A stretch of DNA of 64,000 nucleotides. Source: a virus. Its lineage: Duplodnaviria; Heunggongvirae; Uroviricota; Caudoviricetes. Numbering within the stretch: position 1 is the first letter of the stretch; each line of letters opens with the position of its first letter. A program made the position numbers and the translations under genes. Under the pieces are notes generated by a model, which was not told where the DNA came from, ran no database searches, and worked only from the letters and a program-made list of their open reading frames with translations. The stretch lies in the IMG/VR virus record IMGVR_UViG_3300022862_000263, one strand, 5' to 3'. Shown here in pieces: positions 18,142-23,564 of this stretch.

Positions 18142-20937
18142 ATGGGCGATCTGGCCAAAGAAATCCTCCCAGTCAACATCGAAGACGAGATGAAGCAGTC
18201 CTACCTGGATTACGCCATGAGCGTGATCGTAGGCCGTGCTTTGCCCGATGCGCGTGACGGTTTGAAGCCTGTGCACCGCCGCGTTCTGTATGCGATGAGC
18301 GAATTGGGTAACGATTGGAACAAGCCGTACAAGAAGTCCGCCCGTGTGGTCGGTGACGTGATCGGTAAGTACCACCCGCATGGCGACACTGCGGTCTACG
18401 ACACCATCGTGCGTATGGCTCAGCCGTTTTCGCTGCGCTACCTGCTGGTCGACGGCCAGGGTAACTTCGGTTCGGTGGACGGCGACAACGCTGCAGCGAT
18501 GCGATACACCGAAGTGCGCATGGCCAAGCTGGCACATGAGCTGCTGGCCGACCTGCATAAGGAAACGGTTGACTGGGTGCCGAACTACGACGGTACCGAA
18601 CTGATTCCTGCGGTCATGCCGACCCGTATTCCCAACTTGCTGGTCAACGGATCCAGTGGTATCGCCGTGGGCATGGCCACCAACATCCCGCCGCACAACC
18701 TTGGCGAGGTCATCGACGGCTGCCTGGCGCTGATCGACAACCCGGACGTCACCATTGATGAGCTGATGGCATTCATCCCTGGCCCGGATTTCCCCACTGC
18801 CGGGATCATCAACGGTCGTCAGGGCATCATCGAGGCCTACAAGACGGGTCGCGGGCGCGTGTATATGCGTGCACGCTCGGAAGTCGAGGACATCGATAAA
18901 GTCGGTGGGCGCCAGCAGATTGTCGTTACTGAGCTGCCGTACCAGCTGAACAAGGCCCGACTGATCGAGAAGATCGCTGAGCTGGTCAAAGAGAAAAAGA
19001 TCGAAGGCATCAGTGAGCTGCGTGATGAGTCCGACAAGGACGGCATGCGCATCGTCATCGAGTTGCGTCGCGGTGAGGTGCCGGATGTTGTTCTCAACAA
19101 CCTGTACCAGCAGACTCAGTTGCAGAGTGTTTTCGGTATCAACACCGTAGCTCTGGTTGATGGTCGCCCACGTCTGCTCAACCTCAAAGAGCTGCTCGAA
19201 GCGTTCGTCCGTCACCGCCGTGAAGTGGTGACCCGTCGTACCGTATTCGAACTGCGCAAGGCCCGTGAACGTGGCCACATCCTTGAAGGCCAGGCGGTCG
19301 CGCTGTCCAACATCGACCCAGTCATCGCTCTGATCAAGGCCTCGCCGACGCCGTCCGAAGCCAAAGAAGCGTTGATGAACACCCCGTGGGCATCAAGTGC
19401 TGTTCAGGTCATGGTTGAGCGTGCTGGCGCTAACTCCTGCCGCCCTGATGATCTGCCAGAGCAGTTCGGGCTGCGTGAAGGCTACTACTACCTCTCGCCA
19501 GAGCAAGCCCAGGCCATTCTTGAGCTTCGTCTTCACCGCCTGACCGGTCTGGAGCACGAGAAGCTGCTTTCTGAATACCAGGAGATCCTGGCCCAGATCG
19601 GTGAGCTGATCCGCATCCTCAACAGCGCTGAGCGCCTGATGGAAGTCATCCGCGAGGAGCTGGAGGCGATCCGCGCTGATTACGGTGATGTTCGTCGTAC
19701 CCAAATCATGGATGCCCGCCACGACCTCAATTACGGCGACATGATCCCGGAAGAGGAACGTGTGGTGACCATTTCCCACGGTGGCTATGCCAAGACCCAG
19801 CCGCTGGCTGACTATCAGGCGCAGCACCGTGGCGGCAAAGGCAAGTCGGCCACCGGCGTGAAGGATGAGGACTATATCGAGCATCTGCTGGTCGCTAACA
19901 GCCACGCCACGCTGTTGCTGTTCTCCAGCAAGGGCAAGGTGTACTGGAAGAAGACCTACGACATTCCAGAGGCGTCCCGTGCGGCCCGTGGCCGGCCTAT
20001 GGTGAACCTGCTCCCTCTTGAGGCCGGCGAACGCATCACCGCCATGCTGCAGGTAGACCTTGAAGCTCTTCAGCAGAGCGCCGATGACGAAGATTTCGAC
20101 GACGTCGAAGATGTTGTGCTCGAAGGCGAGCTGGTCGATGGTGAGGAAAGCGAAGAGGAAGATAGCGAGAAGGAAGGCGACACCCCTGAGCTCGTCGCCG
20201 AGCCAACGGGCGACTACATCTTCATGGCCACGGCCTCCGGTACCGTGAAGAAGACGCCGTTGTCGCAATTCGCTCGTCCACGTTCCAGCGGTTTGATCGC
20301 CATCAAGCTCAAAGAGGGCGATACCCTGATCGCTGCCGCAATCACCGACGGCGCCAAGGAAGTGATGATGTTCTCCAACGCCGGCAAGGCCGTACGTTTC
20401 GCCGAGAGCAATATTCGGGAGATGGGTCGGAACACTCGCGGTGTTCGTGGCATGAAGCTCCGTAAAGGTCAGGAGGTCATTTCGATGCTGATCCCTGAGT
20501 CTGGTGCGCAGATCCTCACCGCCTCCGAGCGCGGCTTCGGCAAACGCACCCCTCTGTCCAAATTCCCGCGTCGCAATCGTGGTGGCCAGGGTGTGATTGC
20601 CATGGGTACCAAGGGTCGCAACGGCCTGATGATCGGCGCCATTCAGGTGCAAGACGGCGAGGAAATCATGATGATTTCCGACCAGGGTACCCTTGTGCGT
20701 ACTCGCGTGGACGAAATCTCCAGTGTTGGGCGCAACACTCAGGGAGTGACGCTGATCAAGCTGGCGACAGACGAAAGCCTTGTCGGCTTGGAGCGCGTTC
20801 AGGAGCCATCTGTTAATCCTGATGAACTGGCCGGCATGGGAGACGACGTCGGTGGTGAGTTTGCAGAAACTCCTGAAGCTTATCCGGCAGATGCGAACAC
20901 CGATGCTGGCGCCGGCGCTGAAGCCGAGCAGCAGTAA
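18142..20937 (+). CDS. gyrA: DNA gyrase subunit A
   Basis: 931 aa, near-identical over most of its length to Pseudomonas GyrA. The [23 protein letters not shown] is wild-type at the T83/D87 equivalents. An acidic C-terminal insert and the GyrA-box are present. Confidence 0.97.
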
Positions 20938-20956
20938 TCGCAAGCATTGACGGAGC

Positions 20957-20983
20957 GGGGCGCCCTTTGGGGCGCTCTTTTTT
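20957..20983 (+). terminator. rho-independent terminator after gyrA
   Basis: GC stem gcgccc-tttg-gggcgc followed by a TCTTTTTT run. Confidence 0.7.
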
Positions 20984-20992
20984 CACGTCCCA

Positions 20993-21814
20993 TTGACGAT
21001 TGGCAGGATCGCTATGCCTCACGAACTTGAAGCCTTCAATCCACATGCTGTTGGGGTTTGCCCGGCAGCTGATTGGGCGCCGACTACGTCTACTGTAAGC
21101 GCTGATGATTTTCGCAAGCTGTTGGCGCTATATGAGATGACTGTAAACCGTGCCGACTCGACTCAGCGCAAGCTGCAGCAGCTACAAGCGGAGATTGAGG
21201 ATCCATCGTTTTATCTGCGAGCGATTAACTGCCCGCATGAAATCACGACCGAAAAGATCGTCCTGCACTTTGACCACAACACAGGTAAAGGTGCCTATAA
21301 CGCTCTCGATCAGTTGGCTAAGAGGCTTACCAAGCCATTGGCGGTGGTCGAGCCTACTGAGACGCTTGGGGGGCGTTTACCGCCGACTGAGCGCCAGCAG
21401 TTGTGGACTGTGATCGACGAAGCCCTAAGCTCTACTCATGAGCCCTTCGAGCGTGGAGACATCTGTAACATACTGGCACCAGTGCTGGCACCGCTAGTCA
21501 CGGAGGAGGCTGAGAAACCCTCTCTGATAAACCTGAAAGCTTTGTTAAACAAATACCCCTGGATGGATGTGCCACTGAATTTCGACGAGATCAGGCGCAA
21601 TTCCGACCGGTACATGCAGCTGCGCGATAGAGCTACTAATAGCAAGGCGGCTGCTCCAATGGTGATCTTGGTTGAACCGAAGCCTGATTATAGATTGCTG
21701 GATGGCTGTGACGTGGGCGATTCGCTGATCTACGGACGGAGGCTTGATCATTGGGTAGATCGGTTCCTATTCCCTAACGCTGAGGTGGATCAGCTCGATC
21801 CGCCCACTAAATAA
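20993..21814 (+). CDS. hypothetical protein
   Basis: 273-aa ORF (may start at MPHELEAF, 21014). Occupies the position where serC normally follows gyrA. Confidence 0.4.
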   Translation: MTIGRIAMPHELEAFNPHAVGVCPAADWAPTTSTVSADDFRKLLALYEMTVNRADSTQRKLQQLQAEIEDPSFYLRAINCPHEITTEKIVLHFDHNTGKGAYNALDQLAKRLTKPLAVVEPTETLGGRLPPTERQQLWTVIDEALSSTHEPFERGDICNILAPVLAPLVTEEAEKPSLINLKALLNKYPWMDVPLNFDEIRRNSDRYMQLRDRATNSKAAAPMVILVEPKPDYRLLDGCDVGDSLIYGRRLDHWVDRFLFPNAEVDQLDPPTK

Positions 21815-22126: not shown

Positions 22127-22210
22127 GTGATGAAGCCGCGATTTGATCTTCCGGGTGAGCTTGGTTGGGATCTTTTCTGATCGCTAATTAGGTGATCAGC
22201 AAGCGCTGCA

Positions 22211-22783
22211 GTGAGCAGCGATGATGTTTTCTTCCACGAGGGTATACCGATGTCAGGCATTATTTGCATCCAACAAATCTTCGCCCAAGAGCTCAAAATC
22301 GATCTTGGTCTAAGCCACGCAGAAGCGATCTGGGCGCTGACGTTGGCTGATCTGAAAAAGAAACAGTCCATCAAGCATTACCAGGACACCATTGATCTGA
22401 TTGAGTGTGCTGAGTCTGGTTATCTGCCCCCTTCAGAGCGTGAGATTCTCAGGGAGTCAATCGGTCATGGCACGATTGGGTGCGCTTGGCGCCCCTTTGG
22501 AGTGTCAGACGTCGAGGGGCAGGTTTTGGAGCGTCTGTATGCTTATCTTCGGCAGGCTAAGATCATTTCCGACAAGCAAGACCCATACCTTGGCCGGCAT
22601 GTGACCCTGGTCGAAACAGATGATGCAAAGGGCAAGACCATTAGGGTACGGAAGCGTATGAGCGGGCTTTACGATATCGATACGAAGAATTCCGGCCAGC
22701 CTGATTCCACCTACATAATGAGGCACCCGGACTGCACCGCCGATGACGTGATTAGGGCCCTGGGTAACTATTTACAGTTCTAA
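22211..22783 (+). CDS. hypothetical protein
   Basis: 190-aa ORF (possibly starting at MSGIIC, ~22250). Confidence 0.4.
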
Positions 22784-22865
22784 ATCTGCGGTGTCGTCCC
22801 ATTTTTTTATAATTGAATCGGGTGCCGCTGGTTTGTTGGCATGCGCAGCATTGGAGAGTTGGAAA

Positions 22866-23564
22866 GTGAGTAATGAAGCACAAGTCATCACCATTGACGG
22901 CCCGAGCGGAGCTGGCAAGGGTACGGTTGCCAGCATCCTGGCGAATAAGCTCGGCTGGAAGCTGCTTGATTCAGGAGCTCTGTATCGGCTGCTGGCCTAC
23001 GCAGCTGGTAATCATGGGATTGACTACAGCAATGAGGATGGCCTGCAGGCCCTGGCTGCTCATCTGGACGTTCAGTTTGTTGCTGCAGCTCCGGGGCAGA
23101 CGCAAAAAATCATCTTGGAAGGTGAGGATGTAACCTCGGCTATCCGCACTGAAGATATCGCCGCTGGCGCTTCAAAAGTCAGTGCTTTACCCGGCGTGCG
23201 CGAGGCATTGCTGCAGCGCCAGCGTGAATTTCTCGAGTCTCCAGGCTTGATTGCGGACGGTCGTGACATGGGTACCGTGGTATTTCCGGATGCTGCGGTG
23301 AAAATCTTTTTGACTGCCAGTGCGGAGGAGAGGGCGAAGCGGCGGTTTGAACAATTGACATCTAAAGGTCACCAGGTGGCGCTGGCGCAGGTTCTGGCAG
23401 AAATTAAGGAGCGGGATGAGCGTGACTCCAGTCGGGCCGCCGCCCCTTTAAAGGCGGCAGCCGATGCTCTGTGCATCGACTCGACAGGGCTCTCCATTGC
23501 TAAGGTTGTTGAGCTGATCATCAGTCATATGGAAATCAGAATGCACAGCCTGCGGGCGGCATGA
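22866..23564 (+). CDS. cmk: cytidylate kinase
   Basis: GTG start 7 nt after GGAGAG. N-terminus [15 protein letters not shown] and [11 protein letters not shown] match Cmk. About 232 aa. Confidence 0.85.

Follow-up and report, generated by a model that had tools for sequence, protein, structure and literature searches.

A Pseudomonas-type gyrA and a divergent cmk flank three orphan genes on a probable megaplasmid-type element

Gene content of the gyrA-cmk interval

The 64,000-nucleotide (nt) stretch of DNA analyzed here, called the window throughout, comes from IMG/VR virus record IMGVR_UViG_3300022862_000263 and forms part of a 649,744-bp metagenome contig (ENA assembly ERZ27256738). It contains a Pseudomonas-type gene for subunit A of DNA gyrase (gyrA) and a (d)CMP kinase gene (cmk), separated by three open reading frames (ORFs), in a setting that probably belongs to a megaplasmid-type element of Pseudomonas and not to a chromosome. 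The five genes lie on one strand, and the coordinates of ORF1, ORF2 and ORF3 are those of a public gene caller.

18142-20937, plus strand: gyrA, 931 amino acids (aa), with the Pfam domain DNA_topoisoIV and six DNA_gyraseA_C (PF03989) stretches
21014-21814, plus strand: ORF1, 266 aa, orphan family
21872-22126, plus strand: ORF2, 84 aa, acidic
22250-22783, plus strand: ORF3, 177 aa, specific to the lineage of the element
22866-23564, plus strand: cmk, GTG start, 232 aa, (d)CMP kinase

Coordinates and gene content are as given in an initial annotation made from the sequence alone, and the distance from the gyrA stop to the cmk start, put there at about 1.9 kb, was measured as 1,928 nt. An alternative cmk start at 22791 would add an N-terminal extension that is poorly conserved in relatives, and the GTG start at 22866 was preferred.

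In a P. aeruginosa chromosomal record the order of genes is mtnA-gyrA-serC-pheA-hisC-tyrA/aroA-cmk-rpsA-ihfB. The order in P. putida (CP109603) is the same but without hisC. The window was searched by tblastn with the P. putida MtnA, SerC, PheA, TyrA/AroA, RpsA and IhfB proteins and with P. aeruginosa SerC and HisC. No match to MtnA, SerC, PheA, HisC, TyrA/AroA, RpsA or IhfB was found anywhere in the 64 kb; gyrA and cmk were the sole genes of the chromosomal locus to match. A tblastx comparison likewise detected no remnant of the serC-to-aroA segment between gyrA and cmk. These searches bear out the reported absence of the serC-pheA-hisC-tyrA/aroA block and of rpsA after cmk.

The features bordering the five genes are as follows.

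17283-17744, minus strand: HD_4 (SpoT-hydrolase-like) gene, 153 aa, directly upstream of gyrA
17921-18124, plus strand: called ORF of 67 aa upstream of gyrA
18108-18141, plus strand: gyrA-proximal upstream stretch of about 20-35 nt with the ribosome-binding site (RBS) region, alignable with the P. putida chromosome
20957-20978, plus strand: intrinsic terminator hairpin with a 9-bp stem (7 GC pairs) and a T-run, 20 nt past the gyrA stop
25484-26529, minus strand: GmrSD_N-only protein and DciA, the conserved downstream anchor of the lineage-specific block

Upstream homology to the P. putida chromosome begins at 18123 by blastn and at 18108-18115 by tblastx. Since it ends about 20-35 nt before the gyrA ATG, the chromosomal promoter context appears not to have been carried over. 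Neither mtnA nor the chromosomal promoter region was detectable upstream of gyrA by blastn or tblastx, and neither the HD_4 gene nor the 67-aa ORF has a counterpart next to chromosomal gyrA. At the other end of the gene, the terminator, a strong one, is the positional counterpart of the P. putida hairpin, which has a GCAAGC sequence and a GGGGCG stem. Flanking repeats and insertion sequence ends were sought around gyrA and cmk, and just short repeats at chance level were found. The HD_4 protein is possibly a small alarmone hydrolase. In the intergenic DNA downstream of cmk there is a perfect 16-nt direct repeat, TTAGATCGTTGTCTAC, at 23619-23634 and 23723-23738 (104 nt apart), a candidate for a possible protein-binding site.

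Related contigs and the gyrA-cmk junctions

Related contigs were found in three independent sequencing runs: L005 (SRR21758757), L006 (SRR26624012) and L099 (SRR31418420). They are collinear with the window over 20-30 kb at 76-90% nucleotide identity, and among themselves show mean identities of 85.6-94.4% in aligned DNA and 87-91% across the gyrA-cmk part. For the four variants together, the window being one of them, pairwise nucleotide identity is given as 79-91%. Each has the order gyrA (3' end)-ORF1-ORF2-ORF3-extra gene-cmk, followed downstream by the GmrSD_N and DciA genes. The extra gene, of 108 aa (L005, 2262-2588; L006, 2888-3214; L099, 2887-3213), is missing from the window, where ORF3 and cmk are spaced by just 82 nt. 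The pair formed by the GmrSD_N-only protein and the DciA helicase loader is kept in all four element variants.

An order shared by relatives had been named beforehand as grounds for giving up the idea of an unusual arrangement. The order is indeed shared, yet the relatives that share it are other copies of the element and not chromosomes; the finding is therefore not refuted by them, and they support a secondary replicon.

In its 3' part, GyrA is 91% identical between the window and L006, compared with 80% for either of them against P. putida. The element variants of GyrA are thus closer to each other than to P. putida, which indicates that the present gyrA was already in their common ancestor. 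Two of the contigs, L006 and L099, both start (positions 1-60) within gyrA at nt ~1771-1820, and this start point is the sole 50-nt stretch of the gyrA 3' half that is identical to P. putida gyrA. Such shared breaks fit a k-mer collision with a co-resident chromosomal gyrA; we take them as a hint, not proof, of a second copy.

ORF1, ORF2 and ORF3

None of the three intervening ORFs had a match in Pfam, NCBIfam, PHROG or PADLOC. The family of ORF1 comprises nine proteins among 5.8 billion, that is, ORF1 and eight relatives, and ORF3 is found in six clusters in total among 1.84 billion representatives. Neither has relatives in IMG/VR. ORF1 and an alignment of ORF3 were also used to search the GTDB genomes, without any match, so that this lineage is absent from the sequenced species-representative genomes. 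The AlphaFold2 models had mean confidence (pLDDT) values of 45 for ORF1, from a nine-sequence alignment, and 40 for ORF3, from the single sequence, and are unusable for fold assignment.

These ORFs are nonetheless conserved within the element lineage. ORF3 is the most conserved of the five genes, with 92-94% aa identity between variants; ORF2 has 54-60% aa identity to its L005 and L006 counterparts. The ratio of nonsynonymous to synonymous substitution (dN/dS, by the Nei-Gojobori method) between element variants is 0.10-0.13 for ORF1, about 0.17 for ORF2 and 0.08-0.12 for ORF3. For cmk it is 0.09-0.15, and for gyrA (3' part) it is 0.086 in the comparison with the L006 variant. Comparison of gyrA with P. 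putida likewise gave 0.086. All five genes, the orphans included, are under purifying selection (dN/dS 0.08-0.17).

ORF1 and ORF2 also occur together in the Pseudomonas megaplasmid pMPPla107 and in four pMPPla107-like contigs (L014-L017), where they lie in a different, conserved backbone that has neither gyrA nor cmk. The pMPPla107 homologue of ORF2 (L001, 13085-13231) is 73% identical over 49 aa by tblastx and is likewise 84 aa long. In an intermediate contig, L098, the gene upstream of ORF1 is not gyrA. The 179-aa pMPPla107 protein at the place equivalent to ORF3 has no homology to ORF3. ORF1 and ORF2 form a backbone pair of long standing in the plasmid family; ORF3 is particular to the present lineage.

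The GyrA and Cmk proteins

The GyrA protein scored 1191 bits against TIGR01063 (cutoff 877) and 1219 against NF004043 (cutoff 902), and its score against parC_Gneg (594) was under the 629 cutoff of that model. It had been called near-identical to Pseudomonas GyrA, which is too strong: proteins of the P. putida group are 87-90% identical to it and that of P. aeruginosa 82%, identity to chromosomal GyrA does not go beyond 90%, and gyrA is 84.4% identical to that of P. putida at the nucleotide level. The catalytic tyrosine motif AAMRYTE is kept. Over a 50-residue stretch the quinolone resistance-determining region (QRDR) matches P. putida GyrA exactly, and with GDTAVYD and residues T83 and D87 it is wild type, in agreement with the initial annotation. 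The six PF03989 stretches correspond to a six-bladed C-terminal domain, which retains the acidic insertion specific to Pseudomonas as well as an acidic tail.

Twenty-two GyrA residues are absent from all 120 chromosomal Pseudomonas GyrA sequences compared, most of them conservative substitutions. One lies in the GyrA-box, QHRGGKG (residues 561-567; window 19825-19845), of which 6 of the 7 positions fit the consensus Q(R/K)RGG(R/K)G. Loss of the whole box abolishes supercoiling and spares relaxation (PMC3510516). Here H562 takes the place of an R that E. coli and all of the 120 chromosomal sequences share; this residue lies outside the related contigs. In a sliding analysis, dS along gyrA was 0.46-1.08 throughout, with no low-dS segment of the kind sought as a recent recombination patch; these dS values are inflated by a shift in GC content at third codon positions (GC3) and are not usable as a clock. 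The ORF list and Pfam scans revealed no gyrB in the window.

Cmk scored 277 bits against TIGR00017 (cutoff 135.6) and has the P-loop GPSGAGKGT. It had been called clearly orthologous in type; the protein is just 66-72% identical to any chromosomal Pseudomonas Cmk. Two relatives at 87% identity are located on other element variants, and a Cmk search of JGI metagenomes returned chromosomal loci only, at no more than 71% identity. Both gyrA and cmk are intact genes under purifying selection, and their products score above the family cutoffs and retain the catalytic motifs. A further kinase gene lies elsewhere in the window.

42455-43030, minus strand: thymidylate kinase (Pfam PF02223, E = 8e-16)

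This second element-borne nucleotide monophosphate kinase shows cmk to be one of a larger group of window genes that serve nucleotide metabolism and DNA maintenance. The gene for a GreA/GreB-like factor (41951-42451, minus strand) adjoins that for thymidylate kinase.

Origins of gyrA and cmk

Trees were built by neighbour-joining with 200 bootstraps, together with a 106-sequence Cmk tree (100 bootstraps). The window GyrA fell inside the non-aeruginosa Pseudomonas in 200 of 200 replicates, on a somewhat long branch. The element Cmk clade was monophyletic in 200/200, and a clade of chromosomal Pseudomonas and Zestomonas Cmk excluded it, also in 200/200. In the larger tree the element clade (100/100) was sister to the whole Pseudomonas-type group. 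A calibration on genomes for which both proteins are known gave a similar picture: where GyrA is 89% identical between two chromosomes, Cmk is about 80% identical, whereas the figures for the window are 89% for GyrA but 68% for Cmk. Measured to Acinetobacter and E. coli, the element Cmk has distances close to the chromosomal range and raised slightly at most, which makes a large rate acceleration unlikely. Base composition separates the two genes as well. The GC3 of gyrA (70.8%) is half-way between that of P. putida (80.3%) and that of the element; cmk (57.5%) is within the element range, the scanned neighbour genes having 56-70% and ORF2 50.6%. Judging from these sequence comparisons, gyrA and cmk have different histories, and the present gyrA allele appears to be younger than cmk.

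The linkage of the two genes still has to be accounted for. In 34 of about 40 diverse informative metagenome chromosomal loci, gyrA was on the same strand as cmk and upstream of it, with gaps of 44 nt to 8 kb. The content of the interval varies widely across lineages: in some uncultured bacteria the gap is 44 or 389 nt (L075, 528-3735; L077, 4-2143), and elsewhere it is 2.6-8 kb. With linkage so widespread in chromosomes, chance co-location on the element is an unattractive explanation. The order, strand and proximity of the two genes in the window imitate the chromosomal arrangement, and random placement within 2 kb of each other on a 650-kb element would be rare. These considerations speak for capture from a single donor of a chromosomal gyrA-serC-pheA-tyrA/aroA-cmk segment, followed by deletion of the middle genes or their replacement by ORF1-3, so that both genes would be diverged copies. 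We consider this unlikely. The trees of GyrA and Cmk conflict at high bootstrap values and so do not describe one chromosomal segment that merely lost its middle; Cmk is about 12 points off the identity calibration without a large rate acceleration; GC3 differs between the two genes; no serC-to-aroA relic was found; and the backbone genes ORF1 and ORF2 have an older context in which gyrA and cmk are missing. A simple one-donor capture with loss of the middle genes is thus disfavoured by the comparisons available.

Two histories would accommodate the different ages of the genes. In both, the gyrA allele would come from a chromosome near the P. putida group, bounded tightly by its RBS region and its own terminator, and would have been present before the four known variants split, while cmk would be a much older or differently sourced resident of the element. 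In the first, gyrA and cmk would have been inserted separately around an ORF1-ORF2 remnant. In the second, the chromosomal locus would have been captured jointly in the distant past, and gene conversion from a putida-group host would afterwards have replaced its gyrA; this path would also account for the restriction of homology to the gyrA gene itself.

Nature of the source element

The GC content of the window is 51.7%, and gyrA alone stands out from it (58.9%); the gyrA genes on the P. putida and P. aeruginosa chromosomes have 62-66%. The window is free of core metabolic and ribosomal genes. The paralogues of DNA-maintenance and housekeeping genes that it holds are gyrA, cmk, tmk, dciA, an ATP-dependent DNA ligase, an OGG-like glycosylase, a UvrD/GajB-like helicase and a GreA-like factor. 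Also present are csy1-4, HipA with its helix-turn-helix partner, a Shedu SduA protein, the HD_4 and GmrSD_N-only proteins, HAD and metallophosphatase proteins, flotillin, Fic and ADP-ribosyltransferase (ART) domain proteins, and many orphans. The replicon most similar to the window is pPL1, a circular plasmid described in the next section but one. By its origin in a contig of 650 kb, its low GC content, the near absence of core genes and its megaplasmid relatives, the window fits the first of three origins put forward in the initial annotation, a secondary replicon or megaplasmid carrying housekeeping paralogs. Our preferred interpretation, to which we give a probability of roughly 0.8, is that the window belongs to a megaplasmid-type Pseudomonas element of at least 650 kb, not to a chromosome, and that gyrA and cmk are extra, element-borne housekeeping copies. 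The element is a new lineage of a known kind of megaplasmid, related to pPL1 and more distantly to pMPPla107 and pBASL58.

Several observations weigh against this interpretation. The evidence is restricted to 64 kb of the 649,744-bp contig, and within these 64 kb there are no genes for replication, partition or type IV secretion and conjugation. There is no tRNA gene either, although the pMPPla107-type family is tRNA-rich; this is weak evidence. Similarity to pMPPla107 in the window is low overall and confined to a few genes (ORF1-ORF2 and flotillin), and pPL1 is without the gyrA-to-dciA section at the syntenic place, so that this section may be a variable island. The two contig breaks inside gyrA are the lone hint of a co-resident chromosomal gyrA, and the host is likewise seen only indirectly. 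The trees are neighbour-joining trees only, and the placement of GyrA with the P. putida group is weak (inside it in 88 of 200 replicates, just outside it in 47). Finally, with H in the GyrA-box in place of R or K, full supercoiling activity of the predicted protein is not certain.

Another kind of giant mobile element, such as a jumbo phage, a phage-plasmid or a megaplasmid-derived island integrated in a chromosome, seems improbable. Phages too carry genes for type II topoisomerases and deoxynucleoside monophosphate (dNMP) kinases, and circularity and genes for replication and conjugation were not seen within the window. On the other hand, megablast of 25-kb stretches of the window against INPHARED (50,697 phage records) gave no match, Pfam scans of the window identified no structural phage genes, and ORF1-3 and their neighbours matched no PHROG. 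Relatives in IMG/VR are missing as noted above, and the homologues that do exist are on the circular plasmids pPL1 and pMPPla107.

A chromosome of Pseudomonas or a related genus, with the serC-to-aroA block deleted or rearranged and accessory DNA inserted, was the second origin proposed initially. GyrA is clearly of Pseudomonas type and the order of gyrA and cmk is chromosomal, but nearly everything else argues against it, and we regard it as highly improbable. GC reaches 59% in gyrA only; mtnA, serC, pheA, hisC, tyrA/aroA, rpsA and ihfB are all absent from the 64 kb, with no relics; the flanks consist of defence genes and of orphans that have fewer than ten homologues among billions of proteins; the homologous replicons are megaplasmids only; Cmk falls outside all chromosomal Pseudomonas Cmk, in disagreement with GyrA. 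Loss of serC and aroA would moreover make the cell auxotrophic. The third proposal, an assembly chimera of chromosomal gyrA (and cmk) with unrelated mobile DNA, draws on the short-read metagenome source (the contig name is MEGAHIT-style), on the proneness of the conserved gyrA to k-mer collisions and on the related contigs that break within it, but such a mis-join is not credible when the gyrA 3' end-ORF1 and ORF3-cmk junctions recur in three other runs and thus in four distinct variants, when the element GyrA variants are mutually closest, as a chimera with the local chromosome would not give, and when chromosomal GyrA proteins come no closer than stated above.

Two groups of neighbouring genes deserve mention in their own right. 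The genes csy4-csy3-csy2-csy1 (71-3676, minus strand) encode type I-F Cascade proteins, with no cas1 or cas2-3 beside csy1. No CRISPR array was found in positions 1-9000 of the window, and any array would fall beyond the window start. A block homologous to these csy genes (62-77% aa) is found on pPL1 at 787-791 kb, and the window genes may represent a plasmid-type minimal I-F system. At 55790-57439 (plus strand), adjacent genes encode a protein with an ART-PolyVal ADP-ribosyltransferase domain and a Fic/DOC protein. Toxins of the FicT type modify GyrB and ParE.

Possible functions and implications

If the preferred interpretation of an element-borne gyrA and cmk is correct, the GyrA protein would pair with the GyrB encoded by its Pseudomonas host and provide extra gyrase capacity for 0.65-1 Mb of added DNA. 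Its 89% identity to P. putida GyrA suggests that the subunit interfaces should be compatible. Cmk, together with the nearby Tmk, would raise the supply of deoxynucleoside triphosphates by adding to salvage capacity. Such a set would be a counterpart to what has been described for pMPPla107, namely ParC/ParE, DnaB, RecA and tRNAs. Quinolone-sensitive alleles of gyrA are dominant (PMC4751362), which leads to the prediction that the plasmid should sensitize hosts whose own gyrA is resistant.

A more far-reaching proposal, which we hold to be doubtful, is that plasmid GyrA, with R562H and the 21 other lineage-specific changes, would form a mixed gyrase with host GyrB that resets the supercoiling of the megaplasmid, and would act as a dominant, transferable quinolone-sensitizing allele. 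ORF1-3 would then be accessory to a module for topology and nucleotide supply, and the adjacency of gyrA and cmk might be the fossil of a capture in which gyrA has been gene-converted.

What first appears as a break in the synteny of core genes is, on the interpretation preferred here, a copy of an essential gene carried by a giant mobile element. This has practical consequences. As gyrA is in wide use as a marker for phylogeny and for resistance, a plasmid-borne, wild-type, Pseudomonas-like copy can mislead binning, multilocus sequence analysis and resistance calling in metagenomes and, to judge from the related contigs, can also cause assemblies to break within gyrA. A transferable quinolone-sensitive gyrA, expected to be dominant over chromosomal resistance, offers a hypothesis for the altered quinolone susceptibility associated with megaplasmids of this kind. 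That two genes of unequal age, gyrA and cmk, stand in a single small conserved block is also of use in studying how the housekeeping sets of megaplasmids are assembled. Overwriting of gyrA by gene conversion, if true, would amount to ongoing exchange of alleles of an essential gene from chromosome to plasmid.

Comparison with known megaplasmids and loci

The closest relative of the window at the level of whole replicons is pPL1 of P. silesiensis G3 (NZ_CP143488.1), a 1.17-Mb circular plasmid. A 75-kb stretch of pPL1 has homologues, at 34-80% aa identity, of at least 14 distinct genes of the window, and the gene order is partly as in the window over about 65 kb. Besides csy1-4, the homologues include those of the metallophosphatase (80%), HAD (57%) and flotillin (66%) genes and of the genes at 59039-62171 (71-76%). 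The region of pPL1 from 725 to 800 kb has no counterpart of window positions 7-28 kb (ligase-gyrA-cmk-dciA) save for a Shedu protein of 34% identity. Megablast of the 25-kb stretches against PLSDB identified only chromosomal-type gyrA on mislabelled 'plasmids' and one csy match, on pPL1. At the protein level, no PLSDB match to GyrA exceeded 82%; the two at 81-82% are on P. aeruginosa chromosomal fragments, which also provide the only Pseudomonas matches to Cmk, and neither pMPPla107 nor pPL1 has a cmk. A literature search found nothing specific on plasmid-borne second gyrA copies or on pPL1.

With the chromosomal locus of Pseudomonas, the window shares a same-strand gyrA upstream of cmk, the GyrA insertion specific to Pseudomonas, and counterparts of the RBS region and terminator. 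It differs in that the intervening and flanking chromosomal genes are all missing and in GC content, which is 59% for gyrA and 56% for cmk compared with 62-68% at the chromosomal locus.

The Pseudomonas megaplasmids pMPPla107 and pBASL58, each of about 1 Mb, have GC contents of 52.8% and 55.4% in hosts of 58-62% GC. They are noted for 'housekeeping' genes of replication and repair and for csy genes, and it has been proposed that such plasmids carry partial housekeeping sets to lower their burden (PMC6482414). The window resembles them in its sub-host GC content, its mostly hypothetical genes, its set of housekeeping DNA-maintenance genes and its plasmid type I-F csy genes. Shared genes are numerous in pPL1, which may itself belong to the published family. 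In pMPPla107 the homologues found are just those of ORF1-ORF2, at 64-73% aa identity, and of the flotillin gene, at 57%, and the neighbourhood of ORF1-ORF2 differs from that in the window. As housekeeping copies are a known habit of this plasmid family, the presence of gyrA and cmk is only moderately surprising.

A parallel to the gyrA described here is provided by the parC and parE copies of pMPPla107, which are close to Pseudomonas chromosomal genes. That plasmid alters quinolone susceptibility, and its ParC and ParE are suspected of interacting with host subunits (PMC8544880). Unlike those genes, the one in the window encodes a true GyrA with a GyrA-box-like motif and has no B-subunit partner in the 64 kb; in both cases, type II topoisomerase subunits of the Pseudomonas kind are carried on a plasmid or plasmid-like element. 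The window thus extends a known phenomenon and does not represent a new kind of system. It provides a useful and testable case, in which a full-length plasmid gyrA of host-genus type, with a deviant GyrA-box, is accompanied by a cmk of different age.

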